Shown here one piece after another: positions 2,761 to 63,842 of a stretch of 64,000 nt of DNA. Origin of the DNA: an uncultured Hormoscilla sp. (GTDB lineage: Bacteria; Cyanobacteriota; Cyanobacteriia; Cyanobacteriales; Desertifilaceae); the NCBI GenBank assembly GCA_963921275.4, contig OZ001293.3, forward strand, positions 5,664,001 through 5,728,000. Reading direction: 5' to 3'. A program made the translations under genes and the position numbers. The first letter of the stretch is position 1. Every line of letters begins with the position of its first letter. The notes beneath the pieces were generated by a model that saw nothing but the letters and a program-made list of their open reading frames with translations, made no database searches and had not been told where the DNA came from.

Positions 2761-3743
2761 TATTGCATTACGCAAATACATTAGGACATTCTCGAAAGGC
2801 AGCATCAATGCAGTCTTGGAAATTCTCAAATTCGTTTATCCTTTGTTTCATCCAATTCTTGAGAACAAACCACCAATGCTCTATTTTATTAAGAGCGGGA
2901 GAATAGGTTGGTAAGTATAACAGCTCGCATCCAGCCGACTCAATTAGTTCCCTAACGAATATTGACTTATGAAAACTTGCATTTTCAATAATAACTACAT
3001 CTCCCAAGTTGAGGGATTAAACAGAATTCTACCCAAAATTCAAATAAATCCTTGTTACAACCTCCACTAAATGCTAAAGGAGCAAAGACCTTATCTTCTC
3101 TCTGCGCCGCTATCTAACTGACTCTCTCGGTTCGTTTTCCGGATTTTAGTGCGTAAAATCTTTCTCCTCGGATCGCAGTAACCATAGGGGTATTCTTCTC
3201 TGTTATCTATTCCTGCGATGTCTCAGGAGAGCGCTAATCGCACTACTCCTGAGACATCGCCTCATCAACGTATATTCTCTTATTTTTTCGAGATTATCTA
3301 GTTTTCGCAAAAACTCTTGACGTTTTTCTTCATCTCTTTCCCGATATCCATAGGTCTTTTTTTTTCTGCTTATCCCTAACCAAAGCATGGTTCTACTAAT
3401 ATTTGGTTGCGTAACACAATATGGCCATCTCTTTTTGAGTTTTATCTCCATGCTCCTTTATAAACGCACGAAACTTTTCTTGATTGTTGATTTTGGGTTG
3501 AGGACCTTTGCGACTGGCTGTTTTAGCCTGAAAATATCCAGTCTCAGCCTCTCTTTTCAACCAAAGGTCCAGAGGATTCCTGCTAATATTGAGTTTTCGA
3601 CATATGTTTGTTTTTCGTTCACCTCGTTTATAAGCTTCGATTGCCTTTTTCCGAAAAGCTGTAAGGGGCCGGCATTATTATTCTCCTCGAATCGGTCTTC
3701 TTGTTTTACATTATACGTCCTAAGCTGCTTTGGTAGTGCTATA
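2761..3743 (-). mobile_element. IS630-family element, transposase pseudogene
   Basis: Imperfect TIRs (TATTGCATTAC...TTAGGAC and TATAGCACTAC...TTAGGAC) starting with TA; fragments [45 protein letters not shown]; several frameshifts and stops. Confidence 0.9.
3215..3260. repeat. Hairpin micro-element, family A (46 bp, empty form)
   Basis: GCGATGTCTCAGGAG-AGCGCTAATCGCACTA-CTCCTGAGACATCGC, perfect 15-bp stem; interrupts the IS630 YVDE|AG motif. Confidence 0.9.
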
Positions 3744-8210: not shown

Positions 8211-10608
8211 ATTAAACTAAGCCAGTCCGTCACCGGACCGACTCGTCTTCAAAACCGGACATGAGACTTTCGCCTCATCCTGCTCCTCGGTCACGCCACC
8301 CTTGTCATGGGTACGGCTACTGCCATCGCTGGCAGTCTTTTTGTCGTGGCAGTGTTTGTGTAGCAACTGTAGGTTGTCATACCGGTCCTTACCTCCTAGT
8401 GAAAGGGGCATGATATGGTCAACTTCCCATTTGTCACTATCCATAAACGTTAGTCCGCACTGTTGGCATTTTCCCTTTTGCTGCTTGAGTAGCGTTGCTA
8501 CCCTTTTACTCAGTTCGGGGCTTTTGCCTAATCTTGTGCTCCAATATGTGAGGTTCCCGTCGTATGGGCTTGCGGTCCCTTTCACTTTTACGTGTCTGAT
8601 TATCTCAGTTTCGGAGTGTTTACGTATCTTCATATCACCCTCTTTTGTCTTGCTTCGGAATCGCCATTTAGCATCCTGGTTTACAGACCAGTATTTATAG
8701 GTTATCCAGTTACTTGACTTGTTAGGGTGCCTCCTTTTGGCCCATTGCCATAGGATGTTCCATAGGTAGTTGTCCATATCGCTGTAAATTTCCTTGCTTA
8801 CCACTGTCCTAAAGTAGTTTGACCATCCCCTTATTATCGGGTTTAGCCTGCTTATTAGGGCCGCTTGTGGTGCTGTTATATGGCTAGTTACCATTTCTGA
8901 TAACCGTTCTTTATGCTTCCCTATGGACTTATTACTGGGTTTGATTAGGGTTTTGAATCCTAGGGGTGTTCCGTTTGTTGATTTGCCGGTTCTGTATTTT
9001 CCCTCTTTATATTGCCTTATATTGAATCCTAGGAAGTCGAATCCCGGGTTTTCTCCATTTAGCCTGTGGGCTATCTTTGTCTTTTCAGCCTTCAACTCAA
9101 GCCCTATTCTTCTTAGCCACTCTGCCACCACTGTTTGCGCTCTGTCTATCATCTCCCTGTCTTCATGCATGATCACAAAGTCGTCTGCGTATCTGACTAC
9201 CGTCAGCTTTTGCTTTTCCCTTTGTGTCTTTGCTAATTCCATTACTGCTTCCTCTAACCCCTGTAGGGCTATATTGGCTAGCAGTGGGGATATGACACCC
9301 CCTTGTGGCGTTCCTGCCTCAGTTGTGTGCCATATCTTCTTGTCAATCACCCCGGCTTTTAACCATGCCCGTACTTGTTTACGGATTGGTGACGTAGTAT
9401 TTAATTTTTCGACTAGCGCTTTGTGGTCTATCCTGTCGAAACATTTCGCAATATCTGCATCTAATACCCATTTGGGTTTCTGTTTAATGCTGCTGAATAT
9501 TGCCGCAATTGCATCGTGGCATCCCCGACCCGGTCTGAATCCGTATGAGTTCCCCTCCATATATGCTTCCCATTCGGGTTCGAGCGCAATCTTGAGGAGC
9601 CCTTGATTCGCGCGGTCGTGCATCGTGGGTATTCCTAAAGGACGTTTTTCTTCTCTCCCTGGCTTAGGAATCCATACACGACGTGTAGGCTTAGCCTTGT
9701 TTGAGATTTCAATCTGTCCTACCAGTTCTCGGCGTTGCTTTGGGGTTAGTGATTTCACACCATCCACACCGGCTGTCTTCTTTCCCTGGTTATCTTGTGT
9801 AACCCGTCGTACCGCTAGACATTTGGCAGCCCGGGAGCTTACCAGTAACCTTTGGAGCCTGCGAACTTTTTGCTTATTGCCTTCTTGTGCCGCTCTGTAA
9901 ATTCGTTTTTGCAACTTAAAGACTACCCGTTCCAGCCGAGGCCAGGGGATATCCTTCCATTCATTCATCGATTTTGACATCGTGCTCATGACGTATGTAT
10001 TGCTACTTACAACTTTACAATTGACGTTACCGTGAGGGCGTCAGCATATCCCATCCATTACAGAAAGGCGTTAGCTTCTCCGCGAAATCTTTCCCAGATA
10101 TAACCTGCCGAATGTAAGCAGATGTTGCGCCTTTGGTGGCTGCTCAACCTATCGACCGGTGGTTGAGAGTATGTACCTGGTTTACTTCGTTCCTCTAGAT
10201 GATTGGTCGTAGTTTTAGGTGGATTCCTTATGCCGGGTTTATTGTCGGTGCTTATTGGTCAGAATTCAAACCGCCAATGACCATTATCCTTTCCCTTTTG
10301 GGCCAGCGTGTTTAGCCTTATTACGCTGGTTTGTCGTAACGACACTGTAAATCTTTGCTTTCGCTCACCGTGACTACTTGCACGCTGCGCGAAAAATCGG
10401 CGATGACCGGTTTAGGCTACCAGCCAGGGCGCCTTTCGTACCCGCTTCACGGATTGATGCCATCGCTACCGTGGGGTAAGTGCTGTCACTCCTGCACCTG
10501 GAGGGGTGGGCTTTCACCACCATCATCTAAAAGTTATCAAGGCTAATGGAGCCTTGCCAGTGGTCCCCCTTCGGTTATCACCGGTGGTTTACACTGAACG
10601 AGTCGCAC
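8211..10608 (-). mobile_element. Group II intron (IIB, chloroplast-like), ORF-containing
   Basis: 5' GTGCGACTCGTT at 10608; DV GAGCAGGATGAGGCGAAAGTCTCATGTCCGGTT; DVI ending TTAGTTTAAT at 8211; EBS1 TGAATT pairs with exon GATTTA (G-U allowed). Confidence 0.93.
8217..9989 (-). CDS. ltrA: Group II intron reverse transcriptase/maturase with HNH endonuclease
   Basis: RPLGIP, GTPQGGVISPLL, RYADDF, X domain (LNPIIRGWSNYF), CQQC...EVDHI...NLQLLHKHCH. Confidence 0.95.
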   Translation of the reverse strand: MSTMSKSMNEWKDIPWPRLERVVFKLQKRIYRAAQEGNKQKVRRLQRLLVSSRAAKCLAVRRVTQDNQGKKTAGVDGVKSLTPKQRRELVGQIEISNKAKPTRRVWIPKPGREEKRPLGIPTMHDRANQGLLKIALEPEWEAYMEGNSYGFRPGRGCHDAIAAIFSSIKQKPKWVLDADIAKCFDRIDHKALVEKLNTTSPIRKQVRAWLKAGVIDKKIWHTTEAGTPQGGVISPLLANIALQGLEEAVMELAKTQREKQKLTVVRYADDFVIMHEDREMIDRAQTVVAEWLRRIGLELKAEKTKIAHRLNGENPGFDFLGFNIRQYKEGKYRTGKSTNGTPLGFKTLIKPSNKSIGKHKERLSEMVTSHITAPQAALISRLNPIIRGWSNYFRTVVSKEIYSDMDNYLWNILWQWAKRRHPNKSSNWITYKYWSVNQDAKWRFRSKTKEGDMKIRKHSETEIIRHVKVKGTASPYDGNLTYWSTRLGKSPELSKRVATLLKQQKGKCQQCGLTFMDSDKWEVDHIMPLSLGGKDRYDNLQLLHKHCHDKKTASDGSSRTHDKGGVTEEQDEAKVSCPVLKTSRSGDGLA

Positions 10609-11242: not shown

Positions 11243-12076
<834 letters not shown>

Positions 12077-17734: not shown

Positions 17735-18331
17735 ATGAACAATTTAAGAGGAATTAGTATTTATATAATCGGGATGATGGGTGCAGGGAAAACGACGGTG
17801 GGGGAATTATTGGCAAAGGAACTGGAATATCGTTTTTTTGATACGGATGTGCTGATTGAACGAGTCAAAGGAAAAGCGATCGGGGAAATATTCAAAACGG
17901 AAGGAGAAGCAGGATTTCGGGAGATAGAAAGTCAGGTGTTGGGCTCGCTGTCAGCCTATCTGCAATCAGTGGTGGCTACGGGTGGAGGGATAGTATTGCG
18001 GCAGAAAAATTGGAGTTACCTGCACCACGGCATCGTTGTCTGGCTAGATTTACCGGTAGAACAATTATATAAGCGTTTGCAAGGAGATACGACCCGCCCT
18101 CTGTTACAAGAATGCGATGTCTCCCGGACGCACGGCGAAAACCCGGGAGACATCGCAGACCCCTTGGAAAAACTGCGATCGCTCCTGTCCGACCGGCAAC
18201 CCCTGTACAGTCAAGCGGATTTACACATTACTATGACAGGAGAAGAAACCCCTGAAGGAGTAGCAAGGCGCGTGCTAGAGGAAATTCCGACTATTATCAA
18301 ACCAGAAGTAAAGAATCGGGAATTTAACTAA
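17735..18331 (+). CDS. aroK: Shikimate kinase, carrying an in-frame hairpin insert
   Basis: GMMGAGKTTVG, FFDTD, ATGGG and RPLL motifs; extra CDVSRTHGENPGDI segment. Confidence 0.95.
   Translation: MNNLRGISIYIIGMMGAGKTTVGELLAKELEYRFFDTDVLIERVKGKAIGEIFKTEGEAGFREIESQVLGSLSAYLQSVVATGGGIVLRQKNWSYLHHGIVVWLDLPVEQLYKRLQGDTTRPLLQECDVSRTHGENPGDIADPLEKLRSLLSDRQPLYSQADLHITMTGEETPEGVARRVLEEIPTIIKPEVKNREFN
18113..18157. repeat. Hairpin micro-element, family B
   Basis: TGCGATGTCTCCCGG-ACGCACGGCGAAAAC-CCGGGAGACATCGCA; same loop reverse-complemented at 32032-32046. Confidence 0.9.
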
Positions 18332-24558: not shown

Positions 24559-27500
24559 ATGGAGGGAGAGGGAGGAAGAAGACTCCCCCAGGCCAGAGCA
24601 GCGATCGCCCGCAAGCAACCCGATATTATCCTCTTGGATCTAGGCTTTCCCGAACAGGCAAAAAACGGGTTTCAACTGTTAGCGGAACAGACTCAATCCC
24701 CCGTGCCTGTGTTAGTATTTACTGATCGAGAGAGCTTGATTGACCGGGTAAAAGTGGCTCGTTTGGGAGCACGGGGCTTTCTCCAGAAACCTATATCTAC
24801 AGCGCAAATTATGGAGGCGATCGCTCAAGTTATGGAAAAAACGGACCCGACCGTGGCCAAGCTGCTGATTGTAGACGATGACCCTCAGATGCTAGACCTG
24901 CTGCGCGCAGTATTAGAACCTTGGGGATTTACAATCACCCTGCCAAACGACGCCAAGCAGTTCTGGAATACCCTAGAACAATCGGCTCCCGATTTGCTGA
25001 TTTTAAATGTAGAAATGCCAGAGTTTAGCGGGATAGACCTGTGCGTGCGATTCGTTTAGCGTAAACCTACTTGACACGTGTCAAGAAAGGGAGACCGCTA
25101 CCAGGGTTCCATTAGCCCCGAGAACTTACAGGTGATGGTGGTGAAAGTCCACTCCTTCAGGTGCAGAAGTGAAAGCACTATCCCTACGGTAGAAATGGCA
25201 TCAATCCGTAAAGCGGGATAGAAAGGCGCTATAACTGGCAGCCCAAAACCGGTCAACGCCGATTTTTCGCGCAGCGTGCAAGTAACATGATGAGCGAAAG
25301 CAAAGGTTTGCAGCGTCGTCACTATCAACCAGTGTAATAAGGCTGACACACTGGCCCAAAAGGGAAAGGATACTGGTCATTGGCGGATGTACAGCCGACC
25401 AATAAGCACTGACAACAAACCCGGCGTATAGAACCCATCTAAAGTTACGACCAATCATCTGTAGGAACGAAGTAAACCGGTTGTAGACTCTCCATCACCG
25501 GTCGATAGATGGAGTAGCCACCACAGGCGCAACATCTGCTTTCATCTGGCAGGTCACAACTGGGAAAGATTAAGTAGAGAAGCAAATGGCCACCGGTAAT
25601 AGGTGGTATAGGCTGACGCCCTCATGGTTTCGTCAATTGTGAAGTTGTAAGTAGCAGTGAATATGTCACGGAACATCGTCGATAGACAAGTGTATGACTG
25701 GAAGGCCGTCCCTTGGCGAAAGCTAGAAAGGGTAGTTTTTAAGCTGCAAAAACGAATTTACAGAGCGGCACAGGAAGGCAACTTGCAGTTAGTTCGCAAG
25801 CTCCAAGGGTTACTGAATAGGTCATGGTCCGCCAAGATGATAGCGGTTCGGCAGGTAACACAACAGAACCAGGGAAAGAAGACAGCTGGTGTGGATGGTG
25901 TAACAGCACTAACCCCAAAACAACGACAAGAACTGGTAGGTCAACTCAAAGTCACCAGAGAAGCAAAGGCAAAACCCACACGTCGAGTGTGGATACCCAA
26001 GCCAGGAAGGGACGAAAAGCGGCCACTAGTAAGACCGACGATACACGACCGCGCACTTCAGAGATTGGTCAAACAGTCGCTAGAGCCCGAATGGGAAGCG
26101 TACATGGAAGCCAACTCCTACGGATTCAGACGCCCGAGAGGATGCCACGATGCGATCGAAGCGATATTCAATAGCATCAGATACAAACCCAAGTGGGTTC
26201 TAGACGCCGATATTGCCAAATGTTTCGACAAAATTGACCACTCAGCACTCCTAGAGAAATTGAATACAACATCACCAATCCGTAGACAGATACGGGCATG
26301 GTTAAAAGCCGGAGTGATGGACCAGGGAATATGGCAGGACACAGAAGCCGGAACTCCTCAAGGTGGGGTAATATCACCACTGCTGGCCAATATAGCCCTA
26401 CATGGGTTGGAAAAGGTAGTGATGAGTCTTGCCCACACAAAGAGTGAGAAAAGTAAACTAACAATAGTCAGATACGCCGACGATTTTGTGGTAATGCACG
26501 ATGACCGGTCAATGATTGAGCGGGTACAAGGAGTAATTGAGGAGTGGTTAAGAGGGATAGGACTAGAGTTGAAAGCCGAGAAAACCCAAATATCTCACAC
26601 GCTAGAAGGAGAAAACTCAGGATTTGATTTCTTAGGGTTCAACATCCGACAATATGCAGTAGGGAAACACAGAAGCGGTAAACTCACCAACGGAACCCCC
26701 CTAGGATTCAAAACCCTAATCAAACCTAGCGATAAATCCATTAGGAATCATAAAGAGCAACTATCACAGATAGTTCGCCGCCATAAATCGACACCACAAA
26801 CAGCCTTGATAGCCAAACTAAACCCAATGATCAGGGGGTGGAGCAACTACTTCAAGACGGTGGTAAGTAAGTTTCCTTACACCGACATGGACAAATACCT
26901 ATGGGAGCTGCTATGGCAATGGGCAAAAAGAAGGCATCCCAACAAAACGGGCAAATGGATTGCCAGTAAATATTGGGCCATAACCGGGAAAGACCGGTGG
27001 AGGTTCACGGGCAAATCAAAAGAAAATGGAGAAATAAAGCTAAACCGGCACTCTGAAACTGAGATAATCAGACACACAAAGGTAAAAGGGACAGCTAGCC
27101 CGTTTGACGGTAACCTAGTCTACTGGAGCCAGAGATTAAGAAAGAGCCCGGACGTAAGCACGAGAGTGATTAACCTACTCAAGAGGCAGGAGGGCAAGTG
27201 CCAGCATTGCGGACTAACGTTTAAGAACGGCGACAAATGGGAAGTGGACCACATTCTGCCAACCTCACTGGGAGGAAAGGACTGGTACTCCAACCTACAG
27301 TTGCTACACGATTACTGCCATGATTATAAGTCTGCCAGAGATGGCAGCAAAGGCCGTATCCATGACAAGGATGACGAAACTGAGGAGCCGGATGAGGTGA
27401 AAGTCTCACGTCCGGTTTTGAAGACGAGTCGGTACGGTGACGTACTGGCTTAGTTTAATAAAGTAGTGCGCAATGACCCACATTGGAATGATTTGCCCGT

Positions 27501-30315: not shown

Positions 30316-32880
30316 CTACGAGAAATTACGACGAGCAGCTGACAGCAGGAGGCGCTGTTCCCCACGGGAGATCGCCTGCCGGGTACGATCGACGGCATTA
30401 ATATCTACAGAAATGGAGGTGATACCCCAGCGCACTAAAGCATCTATTAATTCGGGATACATCGCCGGTGCCTGACTGCAGATAGAACAAGGAATTCCAG
30501 CTTGCCGTGCCATGGTAATTAACTGCTCGATCGCCCCCATGACAGCGGGATGACTAGCATTAAGATTACTTGCCAGGGGACCTAAGTCCCGATCAACCCC
30601 CAGCAACAGCTGAGTCAAATCATTGGTGCCAATAGCAATTCCCTGGACTCCAGCTTTAACATATTCGGGCAACAAAAATAAGATAGAAGGCACCTCGGCC
30701 ATGATCCAGAGTTGTAGAGAACGGAAAGCAAAGGTTTCTACCCGACGGCGACAAAAGGAAAACTCCTCTACCCTGCGCACAAAGGGCAAAATTAAGTTAA
30801 CATTGGTTAAACCCTCCTGGTGTAACCTGGCCAAAGCAGCTAGTTCCAGATCGAATAAAGTCGGATATAGCTGATAGCTGAGAGTCCCTCGCAAACCTAA
30901 TTCGTTTCTATCGCTGTCAGACCGCAAATCAAAAGAGCGATAAAATACTGGTCGGGGGGCAAAGGTAGCCGCAAACTTCCGCAGGATCTCCACCCATTGA
31001 TCGATCAACTCCGCCCCGCGACCCTGCTGCAACCACCACTTGGGATGCTTGTTCTCTAAAACCTCTGGGGCCATTAGTTCCGATCGCAATAATCCTACCC
31101 CATCCACGGGCAGGTCTTTGGCCCGTTCCAGAGAACTGGGTTGAGACAGGTTAACTAGCAGTTGCGTGGCAATGGGGTATGGAAAGTGCAAGTGACCGAC
31201 TGTGCTTGCCTGTGGGACTGGTACAAAGGAGTCTTCGATGTCTCCGGAGTAGTGCTCAGATGATGTCCCCTGGGTTTTGGCGATGTCTTCGGGGTTTTTG
31301 CGATGCATCCCGTCGCGCAGCGTGGCGCAGCCATAGACATCGGTCCGGGGGACATCAAGCTCTCCGGAGACATCGAAAGCCTCAACCTGATAAACTTCAC
31401 CTTTGTTGCCATCCATGAGTAATCTGGTGCCAGTGGAAATTACTTGCGTGGCATTACTGGCACCGAGAATGGCTGGGATACCCAATTCTCTGGCAACGAT
31501 CGCCCCGTGGCTAGTCAGTCCTCCCCGTTCCGCGATCGCCCCAGCAGCTTGTTTGAGTAGAGGCAAGTAATCAGTAGTGATTGCCCGCACTACCAAAATT
31601 GTACCCGACACGGCTGGCGCCGCGCTGCGCGATCCGACTGGCTCTCCGGGGTGGGAAAGCACCGTCGCAGGAGCGATCGCGCGTCCGGCCGCAGCGGCCA
31701 GTCCTCTGAGGACTAGCGTAGGAGATTTCGGATTATCCATTAGTTGGGGTCTGGGACTAGAGGGTGGGAGTACAGCATCATCTTTTTCTCTATTTTCCCC
31801 AGTCTCCCGTCTGGGAATTGTTTGCGTCAGCACAAGTTGCGGGTCGTTACCTGGTGCGAGTGAAGCCTGGACCGTCCATTCTAAAGTAAATCTAGGACTA
31901 AAGTCTGCTGCTATTCTAGTTGCGAGGGCAATTAGCTGTTGCAGGTAAGTTTGGTCTAGGGAATTGGTTGCGATTAGTTCCTCGCTGACTGTATAGCTTT
32001 GTAAAGGCGATGTCTTCGCGATGCCTTCCGGGTTTTCGCCGTGCGTCCGGAAGGCATCGTAGGTTTTTGCGATTTTTCGCGCAGCGTAGCATCCCGATTT
32101 TTCCGGAACGGTAGACATCGAAGTCGGGCTATCATGGTCGGAAACTAAGTGATAGGCAATGCTTTTTTGACCGGGTACCTGTACTAGGATCGAGCCAGTG
32201 GACGCCTCCACTTCCCAGTAGTCTGGGATGACTTCTCCTTTTACCAGGGACATTCCTAACCCCCAAGTCCCCTGGATGCTCCAGATTCGGTTGGCCCTTA
32301 AGACTCCAGAGGCGATCGCATTCTGGATCGGTTGCACCAAGACCGCCCAGTTAATCTGTGCGATGCTAATACCTCTGCGCTGCCAGAAGAACAAGCTGCG
32401 GGCTCTAAATAACTCCGCCCAGGCGAGTTTCAGGGTGCGGGCGATCGCATCATTATCGGTAAAGCTGACATAAGATTGCCAAAGTCCAGCAACAGTATCA
32501 CTTAACATAGGGTGATATGCCTCGCCACTCAGAGACTTGACATGCACAGAAGGGCGAAAAATTACTGTGGGAACTTGCAACTGTTTAATCCCTTGAGAAA
32601 GGGTTGCCAACCATTCTAGAGGTAGGGTGGCGTCCGCAAGCAGCTGACGGAGACGTCTGGCTTCTGCTTGCAGTTGGCGGGGGTTATCCACTCTCAAGGC
32701 TGCATATGCTGGTTCTAACCCGTCTTGAGTTTCCAGAAACTGCCGCCAGACTCCGCTGTTCACCACCAACCCCGGGACTACCGGATAGCCATGCTGCATT
32801 AATTGGCTCAGGTAAAAGGCTTTATTCCCTACCAGGGCCCGGTCCGTTGGTTGAATTTTCTCTAGCCAGTAAAGATCCAC
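30316..32880 (-). CDS. PEP-synthase/PPDK-like PEP-utilising protein with in-frame nested inserts
   Basis: VGNKAFYL, GGLTSHGAIVARELGIPA (phospho-His), DGVGLLRSE, MAEVPS and IGTNDLTQ motifs. Confidence 0.9.
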   Translation of the reverse strand: MDLYWLEKIQPTDRALVGNKAFYLSQLMQHGYPVVPGLVVNSGVWRQFLETQDGLEPAYAALRVDNPRQLQAEARRLRQLLADATLPLEWLATLSQGIKQLQVPTVIFRPSVHVKSLSGEAYHPMLSDTVAGLWQSYVSFTDNDAIARTLKLAWAELFRARSLFFWQRRGISIAQINWAVLVQPIQNAIASGVLRANRIWSIQGTWGLGMSLVKGEVIPDYWEVEASTGSILVQVPGQKSIAYHLVSDHDSPTSMSTVPEKSGCYAARKIAKTYDAFRTHGENPEGIAKTSPLQSYTVSEELIATNSLDQTYLQQLIALATRIAADFSPRFTLEWTVQASLAPGNDPQLVLTQTIPRRETGENREKDDAVLPPSSPRPQLMDNPKSPTLVLRGLAAAAGRAIAPATVLSHPGEPVGSRSAAPAVSGTILVVRAITTDYLPLLKQAAGAIAERGGLTSHGAIVARELGIPAILGASNATQVISTGTRLLMDGNKGEVYQVEAFDVSGELDVPRTDVYGCATLRDGMHRKNPEDIAKTQGTSSEHYSGDIEDSFVPVPQASTVGHLHFPYPIATQLLVNLSQPSSLERAKDLPVDGVGLLRSELMAPEVLENKHPKWWLQQGRGAELIDQWVEILRKFAATFAPRPVFYRSFDLRSDSDRNELGLRGTLSYQLYPTLFDLELAALARLHQEGLTNVNLILPFVRRVEEFSFCRRRVETFAFRSLQLWIMAEVPSILFLLPEYVKAGVQGIAIGTNDLTQLLLGVDRDLGPLASNLNASHPAVMGAIEQLITMARQAGIPCSICSQAPAMYPELIDALVRWGITSISVDINAVDRTRQAISRGEQRLLLSAARRNFS
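31234..31377. repeat. Four-level nested hairpin element (A contains B, B contains C, C contains an SDR-like unit)
   Basis: Three concentric GATGTC...GACATC pairs around CGCGCAGCGTGGCGCAGCCAT. Confidence 0.85.
32008..32120. repeat. Family C element carrying a family B element
   Basis: CGATGTCT...GCATCCCGATTTTTCCGGAACGGTAGACATCG with inner CGATGCCTTCCGG-loop-CCGGAAGGCATCG. Confidence 0.85.
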
Positions 32881-32922: not shown

Positions 32923-33699
32923 ATGGGCAGCCCGACTCAATGGGTAAAGAGCTTTTTGAATCTGTTTCTCAAGTCCAATTGTCCTCTGTGCGGACGTCCA
33001 GCCGATCGGGAATTATGTCCATCTTGCGAGCGCTCGCTGCTGCGGTGCCAGTTTACCAATCCCAGTCAATTTTGGAAAGGACCGCTGCCAATATTTGTCT
33101 GGGGCTTATACGGCGGCCTGCTCAAGCAAGCGATCGCTGCCCTCAAATACGAAAATCAGCCCCAGTTAGCTCGTCCTCTCGGTACTTGGCTAGCCCAAGC
33201 TTGGATGAAATCGATATCTCCTGGGAGCGCTACATGCGCTGCGCGCACGCTGCGCGATCGCACTACCCAGGAGATATCGACGCCCCATTCTCAGGTTAAA
33301 CCAGCGGTTCGACTTCCCTCACCGCAAGTAGTTGTACCTATCCCCCTACACGCCGATAAGCTCAAGCAGCGCGGCTTCAACCAGGCAGAACTGTTGGCAG
33401 AAAGCTTTTGCCAATACACGGGTTTACCCTTGTGCCGCCAGGGTTTAGAACGGGTGCGGACAACGGAGGCCCTGTTTGGTTTGTCTCTTACTGAAAGACA
33501 ACAAGTTTTGGCTGACGCCTTGAGTGTGGGTGAAAGCTTAACTCAAAAGCGACCGCAACGGGTGCTGCTGCTAGACGATATCTACACTACTGGTACTACT
33601 GTAAGCGAAGCCACTAGTGTCTTGCGCCGTCAGGGAATTTTCGTCTATGGCGTAGTCGCGATCGCCACCACCAAGAAATCTCCCGGTAGTGGGTCATAA
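32923..33699 (+). CDS. comF: ComF family protein with in-frame insert
   Basis: CPLC...CPSC zinc finger, RGFNQAELLA and LLDDIYTTGTT motifs. Confidence 0.92.
   Translation: MGSPTQWVKSFLNLFLKSNCPLCGRPADRELCPSCERSLLRCQFTNPSQFWKGPLPIFVWGLYGGLLKQAIAALKYENQPQLARPLGTWLAQAWMKSISPGSATCAARTLRDRTTQEISTPHSQVKPAVRLPSPQVVVPIPLHADKLKQRGFNQAELLAESFCQYTGLPLCRQGLERVRTTEALFGLSLTERQQVLADALSVGESLTQKRPQRVLLLDDIYTTGTTVSEATSVLRRQGIFVYGVVAIATTKKSPGSGS
33211..33280. repeat. Family A element, filled form (24-bp SDR-like unit in the loop)
   Basis: TCGATATCTCCTGGG-AGCGCTA[CATGCGCTGCGCGCACGCTGCGCG]ATCGCACTA-CCCAGGAGATATCGA. Confidence 0.9.
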
Positions 33700-33840: not shown

Positions 33841-33934
33841 CGATGTCTGAGAGATTTTTGCGATTTTATGCGCTACGCGCACGCTACGCGGACGCTCGCG
33901 TAGCATCCCGATTTTTCCGGAACGGCAGACATCG
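33841..33934. repeat. Family C element (intergenic) carrying an SDR-like unit
   Basis: Same outer sequence as 32008-32120 with a different passenger, ATGCGCTACGCGCACGCTACGCGGACGC. Confidence 0.85.
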
Positions 33935-41000: not shown

Positions 41001-41023
41001 TTCGATGTCTCCGGAGAACGCTA

Positions 41024-55313: not shown

Positions 55314-55558
55314 GAGCAGGAACAGCAGCTTGCTAACGGCCTAAATGGCCTGGCCATTACCCCTGGGTCTGCTGGATCGTGTTTCCCGATCGAGTCGTGT
55401 AGAATACTTGTCAAATTTACCTTGCCGATAGTATAGTAAGAGATTGGCGACTTAAACTGATAACTAACTACTCCGTCGATAACTGGCGATCGCGTACTGT
55501 GGGCGGAACCGACATGGCTGCGCCACGCTGCGCGATCGGACCCCTGCAAGAGATAAAG

Positions 55559-57500: not shown

Positions 57501-57642
57501 GATGTCTATTGGGTAGTGCGACTACGATGTCTCCCCCACGTTCCCACGGCTCTGCCTGGGAACGTGGGATTAGCCCATGGGCTGCGCCACAGGCTACCGG
57601 TCCTACGCAATCCCCGGAGACATCGAGATCCCAAGAGACATC
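57501..57642. repeat. Nested hairpin composite downstream of rpoC1
   Basis: GATGTCTATTGGG-TAGTGCGACTA[CGATGTCTCC...GTTCCCACGGCTCTGCCTGGGAAC...GGAGACATCG]AGAT-CCCAAGAGACATC. Confidence 0.75.
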
Positions 57643-57804
57643 CCAGGTTTTGCCCAAAAACCTGGTTTCTGGGCAAAAGAGTGAAACCAGAGAGCAGCAA
57701 AAATGAGATACACCCAACCCCGCTGACTGTCCGAAGGGACAGTCAGCGGGGTTGGAAGTGGCAATTGTCAAATCTATTGCGTTGTTTTCTTGTTTCCTGT
57801 AAAA

Positions 57805-63790: not shown

Positions 63791-63842
63791 CCGATCGCGC
63801 AGCGTGGCGCAGCCATGCGGCGTCAGTCCCTGGGCTGAGACC

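Follow-up and report, generated by a model that had tools for sequence, protein, structure and literature searches.

Four non-coding hairpin micro-elements are stacked in frame in a phosphoenolpyruvate synthase-like gene of a Hormoscilla cyanobacterium

A 64,000-nucleotide stretch of DNA from an uncultured Hormoscilla sp. (contig OZ001293.3; hereafter the window) contains a gene for an 854-residue phosphoenolpyruvate (PEP) synthase-like protein, and a 141-nt segment of this gene (31237-31377) consists of four stacked micro-elements, non-coding hairpins that belong to genus-wide repeat families. The nest is real, mobile and more modular than was held in an original prediction made from the sequence alone, and it is a variant of small palindromic elements. 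We propose, with a probability of roughly 55%, that single-stranded DNA (ssDNA) hairpins were first inserted by an enzyme acting in trans, and that nested junctions then spread by homology-guided copying, filtered by reading frame.

The nest occupies 47 codons and consists of a 138-nt palindrome followed by a 3-nt tail. Three inverted-repeat shells are nested in it, with left ends at 31237, 31262 and 31282 and right ends at 31374, 31356 and 31341, respectively. All layers are assigned to the plus strand, which in the nest is the strand bearing a conserved T.G wobble. The outer shell belongs to family A (31237-31260 and 31359-31374, tail 31375-31377) and aligns to a free copy of that family. 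Layer 2 is a family-B element (31261-31358, palindrome 31262-31356) at a fixed site directly after the A loop; without cargo it adds a net 39 nt. Layer 3 is a family-C element (31282-31342, palindrome 31282-31341) at a fixed site in B, and comparison with five other loci suggests that it has lost 6 nt on its 3' side. The innermost layer is a 22-nt double mini-hairpin unit with two GNA triloops (31313-31334). Its length was set by polymorphic inserts at other sites, and in the nest it costs one host base, giving a net gain of 21 nt. The net length steps of the four layers are +45, +39, +36 and +21 nt, the last three being multiples of three because 2, 6 and 1 bases were probably lost. The DNA fold of the stretch reaches -47.9 kcal/mol (z = -7.4), which none of 200 shuffles equals. 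In an Rfam scan no family matched the nest, and the matches within the window were to group II introns only. The original prediction had set the limits at 31234 and 31377 and had placed the innermost unit in the loop of C. The nested shells and the inner unit are borne out, but the first three bases belong to the host gene, 31375-31377 are the element tail, and the unit lies in the 3' arm of the C stem.

The genome of the window (G000) was compared with four genomes of the same genus (G001 to G004). The alignment of orthologues, which had been suggested as a way to define empty sites, did so: G001, G002 and G003 show a 141-nt gap at the nest site, and G004 carries only the outer two layers, A[B], of 84 nt. 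Two further studies provided runs X5 and X10, in whose contigs 31236 is joined to 31378 with zero shared letters. This clean empty joint indicates that there is no target duplication and that the element is the palindrome plus its 3-nt tail. Contigs of runs X1 and X2 are identical to the window over the left flank and the palindrome, as far as 31377 and 31372, respectively; both runs come from a single study, possibly the source of the assembly. An assembly artefact was rejected on the basis of the intact nest in the X1 and X2 contigs and the empty or partial alleles in the relatives and in X5 and X10. An X6 contig departs from the window sequence at the start of the A loop; it may represent an A-only allele and was not counted. 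Two RNA runs contained just 5-7% of the sequence words and were left out. Among the ways in which it might be wrong, the original prediction had listed an ancestral domain, layers without copies elsewhere and a faulty assembly. The segment is not ancestral in the orthologues, the layers are repeated genome-wide, and the nest is found in contigs of runs X1 and X2.

The alleles also indicate how the layers are exchanged. The outer shell at the nest site is near-identical between G000 and G004 (23/24 and 18/19 positions). The B arm of G004 matches two other G000 loci and not the G000 allele, and the two-layer allele therefore need not be ancestral. Among 26 orthologous A sites compared, 9 are empty, 9 have other content and 8 are equal in length. 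Shared elements diverge faster than their flanks (20/336 versus 52/1913 positions, p = 0.004). At position 5758241 of the G000 contig C1 the shell is common to G000 and G004 and the guests differ. A degenerate A loop with a fresh +43 insertion (C1:3298310) and a three-layer composite in G000 at a site that is empty in G004 (C1:4439919) indicate that single insertions and moves of whole composites occur too. These alleles show that the families move and that they are polymorphic among closely related species. We also observed, at C1:5916536, an 18-nt perfect palindrome corresponding to family A without its loop, which is present in G000 and not in G004.

The host gene (30316-32880, minus strand) was assigned from its open reading frame (ORF), its translation, its Pfam domains and a match in the PDB. 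The domains are PPDK_N (residues 15-367), PEP-utilizers (425-494) and PEP-utilizers_C (572-839). The nest lies in frame in the minus-strand ORF, as had been predicted, and three of its six frames are free of stops. Its product is residues 502-548, part of the linker that joins the mobile His domain to the PEP-binding domain. The best PDB match, the solved PEP synthase 9dae, aligns to residue 505 and resumes at 568; the linker is 24 residues long in 9dae and 62 in the host protein. An ancestral protein domain was rejected, since the orthologues and the solved structure are without the nest segment. Of 46 inserts in long ORFs, 41 have a length divisible by three, versus 12 of 24 outside them (p = 7e-4). 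On an ORF map spanning 58% of the contig, long ORFs contain 98 of the 384 A copies and 106 of the 238 copies of a 15-nt unit, the remainder lying outside, while the 22-nt unit is seldom found in ORFs (20 of 156 copies).

The layers belong to large families, as the original prediction held when it spoke of several families of tiny non-autonomous elements, with tens to hundreds of copies each. In a profile scan of G000, family A had 247 simple hosts and 166 interrupted ones. The short units fall into four families of 136-274 copies each, as counted by searches allowing 2-3 mismatches; the 24-nt unit has 205 copies and the 22-nt unit 156 (at most 3 mismatches). The genome is rich in HIP1 sites (4754 versus 85 expected). 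Common GATGTC/GACATC ends had been taken as a shared feature of the families. This hexamer is merely the commonest end, and the ends vary with compensating paired changes. Palindromes in G000 that do carry it peak at 38, 39 and 42 nt (15, 25 and 84 of 459 pairs). The family-A model has matches in all five genomes of the genus and none in 26 other relatives or in 140 genomes drawn from the class (the two sets overlap). Among the genome-contig loci listed with the A core, 73 of 75 are titled Hormoscilla. Judged from these sequences, family A appears to be confined to the genus.

The structure of the elements has been conserved. In 72 distinct 42-nt A copies, outer-stem positions 8-13 are paired in 347 of 432 cells, compared with 267 in the best of 1000 shuffles. 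The T.G wobble is kept in 71 of these copies, on one strand, and an inner pair alternates between G-C (56) and A-T (10). The A copies of the relatives hold 100 two-sided changes versus 28 +/- 5, a count that is informative for the outer stem alone, as the search fixed the inner core. The short units consist of one or two mini-hairpins with GNA triloops, in which the G and the A are kept and the middle base varies. With RNA parameters the two hairpins of the 22-nt unit do not form. GNA mini-hairpins are described in parts of one report as DNA-specific, far more stable in DNA than in RNA and resistant to exonuclease (PMC13037366). The loops thus point to an ssDNA stage.

To compare insertion sites, G000 was aligned to portions of two relatives, ~1.2 Mb from G004 and 0.4 Mb from G002. 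The lengths of the gaps that contain repeats peak at 15, 21-24 and 45 nt. At 35 independent short-unit sites, NCGA lies directly 5' in 29 filled and 20 empty alleles. Genome-wide, the short units show the same kind of 5' bias, with a loosely constrained 3' side, and the last four bases of each unit resemble its target. A C is found at -4 in 90% of the contexts of the 22-nt unit and 87% of those of the commonest 15-nt unit, and both units themselves end with C at -4; in the other two short families the C is at -3, and in family A at -1. Among free A copies (n=71), 97% have C directly 5', and the bases of the G-A-A tail are kept in 93, 76 and 82%. Short-unit insertion is oriented and without target duplication at the sites listed. 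Filled alleles lean to the consensus by 15:3, which target choice would predict likewise.

Nesting of the families in one another, as the original prediction proposed, is supported; it is strong, and the sites are fixed. Among the 100 simple A copies that have the commonest end, 29 occupy one fixed site in the loop of another A, and 14 of 32 simple B copies occupy that same site. For the short units the preference for hairpins is just 3.5-fold after available targets are counted (20/719). The A loop of our nest is a rare variant with 14 copies, two of which may be one local duplication. It is never found in a simple A; B follows in 11 copies, A in 2 and another insert in 1, and C is at the identical place in B in 6 of the 11 copies with B, five of them at other loci. 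The junction between the 22-nt unit and C is found again within a chimeric nest at C1:1994499. Of 73 guest-bearing hosts, 26 have a 3' host variant that none of the 247 simple hosts has, and one junction is common to 63 distinct hosts and 36 guest arms. A depth parser assigned a depth of at least 2 to 69 of 355 clusters, and a depth of 4 to eight clusters, versus 0 of 1428 control windows at depth 2; these figures are a rough guide, because the parser scored our nest as 2 and may over-count elsewhere. The recurring linkage suggests that nests behave as cassettes, which may be copied or swapped among copies.

The mechanism that we favour starts from families whose mobility and polymorphism are shown above. 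Short units are shown to insert in one orientation, immediately 3' of an NCGA-like tetranucleotide and without target duplication; the longer hairpins, each a palindrome with a 3-nt 3' tail, are placed after a C. The moving form would be ssDNA, probably handled by an HUH-like (phosphotyrosine) enzyme encoded outside the elements. After a guest has settled in one host element, other copies of the host would offer homology on both sides. Copying or swapping between copies could then carry the guest together with some adjacent host bases, or the composite could move whole. In genes, the survivors would mostly be net multiples of three in tolerant linkers, probably as a result of selection.

A number of observations weigh against this proposal. 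In searches of G000 (96.7% complete) for Y1, OrfB, IS110, Y2, tyrosine recombinase and Cas1, no mobiliser gene was found linked to the elements. Of the two Y1 matches, the first has a changed HUH motif and the second is frameshifted; across the genus, 18 of 20 loci with Y1 are without any of these modules and sit in arrays of other repetitive extragenic palindromes (REPs). The target rules of long hairpins differ from those of short units, and a single enzyme would have to satisfy both sets. Overwriting of flanks at short-unit insertions is not significant (18/140 versus 35/419, p = 0.13), and copying with flanks is therefore shown for nested hairpins alone. Moves of whole composites together with fast rewriting of the arms would mimic the linkage that we attribute to conversion. 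In ORFs, the stop-free 24-nt unit (48:25 antisense to sense, p = 0.01) and family A (69:29) are biased to the antisense orientation, for which a purely DNA-level model gives no account in the case of the 24-nt unit; the other three short units, the 15-nt and 22-nt units among them, have no strand bias in genes. The GNA loop is conserved in 149/156, 201/205, 260/274 and 134/136 copies of the four short units, but these counts stem from searches that tolerate 2-3 mismatches, which make all positions look conserved.

The mobilisers suggested in the original prediction (HUH/TnpA-RAYT, an IS110 recombinase or a reverse transcriptase) are thus not found linked to the elements. Intact genes for Y1 or REP-associated tyrosine transposases (RAYTs) are kept in G001, G002 and G004, amid other REP arrays, and both G000 copies look damaged. 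RAYT-like Y1 genes were seen at L045 (1261-2400), L046 (1050-1960) and L182-L199, each in its own REP array. OrfB was rejected as mobiliser, as its six G000 matches correspond to an IS607-type element with other ends; this element, of ~1.8 kb with a serine recombinase and a TnpB-like ORF, has six copies, at C1:50955 and five other places. The single IS110 match in G000 is broken, and this candidate was rejected as well. Y2 had no match in G000, and the control gave none either. The tyrosine recombinase domain (PF00589) was not found in G000 and is present in all 14 control genomes; Cas1 was not detected in G000. None of the 70 commonest long-repeat groups of G000 has the ends of these elements. 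In the same genome, repeat groups of >100 copies have group II intron-like ends. One 31-kb contig of the assembly, C3, has 17.6% G+C versus 47% elsewhere and possibly comes from another organism.

Several other explanations were considered. Enzyme-free insertion similar to SPDIR (short-patch double illegitimate recombination), in which nuclease-resistant ssDNA fragments anneal at replication forks via short mismatched homologies, after which the hairpin would loop out and the insert become fixed, would cover both insertion and nesting. It fits the empty mobiliser searches, the same behaviour across many unrelated families, the host bases that accompany guests and the resemblance between the last four bases of each short unit and its target. 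According to sections of one preprint, SPDIR produces 3-100 bp microindels from single strands, is suppressed by exonucleases, and is very rare and variable in wild type (bioRxiv 10.1101/2023.11.22.568220), whereas the inserts here are constant in length and ends. The 3' side is scarcely constrained, overwriting of short-unit flanks is not significant, recJ is present in all five genus genomes, and the invariant wobble pair suggests recognition by a protein. We therefore regard this explanation as unlikely, although worth keeping in view. Retro-mobility, in which the hairpins are transcribed, copied by the abundant reverse transcriptases of group II introns and integrated via template switching, would make use of an activity that is plentiful: G000 has 93 matches to the reverse-transcriptase domain RVT_1, the window contains three group II intron D5/D6 matches (~8211-8288, 11999-12076 and 27382-27459), and a 15-nt unit lies upstream of a reverse transcriptase gene at ~25263. 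That the 24-nt unit and family A lean to the antisense orientation in ORFs agrees with it; the lack of strand bias in the 15-nt and 22-nt units does not. Moreover, such loops are described, in the parts of the report cited above, as much more stable as DNA than as RNA (PMC13037366), the 22-nt unit misfolds with RNA parameters, and intron ends and targets differ from the rules found here. This route appears improbable.

The -4 cytosine of the 22-nt and commonest 15-nt units (90% and 87% of contexts, each unit itself ending with C at -4) recalls host topoisomerase I, which cuts ssDNA four bases after a cytosine (the rule as given in part of PMC3467081) and could rejoin the wrong ends. However, the C is at -3 in the other two short families and at -1 in family A, and all organisms have topoisomerase I whereas family A is restricted to a single genus, so we give this idea hardly any weight. 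The model of the original prediction invoked four independent insertions at this site, with families that seek out each other's loops through shared ends. The two-layer allele of G004, the fresh insertion at C1:3298310 and a neighbouring gene that shows both A alone and A with a unit are all in its favour. Yet all three junctions, with linked rare host bases, recur across loci, and four independent insertions here are not supported for that reason. The G004 allele may be converted rather than ancestral, the fourth layer is in a stem, the short units obey a 5' tetranucleotide rule and the ends vary. We consider this model very improbable. Insertion of ssDNA hairpins in trans followed by homology-guided copying remains the reading that we prefer.

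The small dispersed repeats SDR1-8 of Nostocaceae were reportedly described by Elhai et al. in 2008 (Genome Res 18:1484). The likeness to SDRs and to Rickettsia palindromic elements (RPEs) noted in the original prediction is upheld. Like SDRs, which are units of ~21 nt in many dispersed copies, the 22-nt and 24-nt units here (inserts of 21-24 nt) are dispersed through a HIP1-rich cyanobacterium; the hairpin families of 41-54 nt exceed this size. SDR5 is described, in parts of two articles, as a 21-nt module that inserts into HIP1 between its bases 3 and 4 (PMC4390886, PMC13756078); the insertion point is equivalent in a full HIP1 site, and most targets here are the 5' half-site alone. As far as a further article describes them, SDRs were not found outside Nostocaceae (PMC5861425). 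Relative to SDRs as citing papers describe them, the elements here are in another lineage and include additional 15-nt units and hairpin families of 41-54 nt that nest several deep. RPEs, as partly described in PMC10969869, are likewise palindromic repeats that add an in-frame peptide to conserved proteins. An RPE, however, is a single unit of ~150 bp with a conserved peptide; here there are four modules, alleles of 84 and 141 nt, and peptides that differ.

Single-strand transposons of the IS200/IS605 type insert in one orientation 3' of a tetranucleotide, without duplication, and have imperfect hairpins. The short units are similarly oriented 3' of NCGA without duplication (29/35), and family A follows a one-base rule instead. 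In contrast to these transposons the elements here are 15-54 nt long and geneless, and a cognate TnpA with matching end hairpins was not found. They differ from miniature inverted-repeat transposable elements in that no target-site duplication exists at the nest or at the listed short-unit sites and no autonomous insertion sequence among the 70 commonest long-repeat groups shares their ends. REPINs, REP doublets that are associated with RAYTs (Bertels and Rainey 2011, PMC3116915; GTAG/CGTC REPs, PMC3733652), are in the portions of these papers described as non-autonomous imperfect hairpins, an asymmetric unit plus a short tail, and their clusters as arising by insertion into or beside existing REPINs. 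The empty allele and the tail logo confirm a hairpin with short tail in our case; no cognate RAYT with the same flanking repeats was found. Moreover, the elements here are not REP doublets, do not cluster around RAYT genes and occupy fixed sites inside other families. REPs and REPINs lie mainly outside genes; the placement here is mixed, with many intragenic copies. The GC clusters of yeast mitochondria, in the part of PMC8811140 that concerns them, are short GC-rich palindromes, in frame in genes, with merging, shuffling and conversion between copies. They are organellar and their terminal repeats are read as target duplications, which the elements here do not have. No description of these families was found in the literature searched, PMC7313196 included; subscription papers and supplements were outside its scope.

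Further copies occur in the window. The claim that each layer stands alone elsewhere holds for A (3217-3258, minus strand), B (18116-18154, minus strand) and the 22-nt unit (55513-55534, minus strand, ends within 1 nt; 63795-63816, plus strand), but the C copy at 33842-33933 (plus strand) is itself a composite with short units. The host gene contains a second nest (32009-32122, plus strand), a C shell with a B-like element and two 15-nt units; relatives carry other cargo or another family at this site. A 24-nt short-unit insert at 31608-31632 (minus strand, ends approximate) is missing in G001-G004. At ~32497-32525 of the same gene, relatives have differing inserts, of other lengths or families. 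In the neighbouring gene a family-A element with a 24-nt unit (33234-33257) lies in frame at 33212-33280 (minus strand), where G004 has A alone and G001-G003 are empty. A further nest at 57501-57643 consists of an A shell, a second shell within it, and a different REP-like palindrome with a degenerate short unit. At 41004-41020 there is a family-A left arm with no right arm close by.

These hairpins have consequences for the proteins that host them. Stacked hairpins show one way for bacterial proteins to acquire tens of residues stepwise. Hairpin stacks can also produce false protein homologies between unrelated genes; residues 251-294 of the host protein matched three unrelated loci. How elements too small to encode anything are moved has been a standing question since the report of the SDRs. 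A possible answer, which we put forward only tentatively, is that they represent a class of transposase-less mobile DNA, ssDNA mini-hairpins of 15-54 nt that would be handled by host enzymes, home into each other's fixed sites and build in-frame protein segments layer by layer. With its several families and their hundreds of copies, alleles both empty and filled, precise ends, a rule for targets and conserved structural marks, the genus offers enough for direct biochemical and genetic tests.

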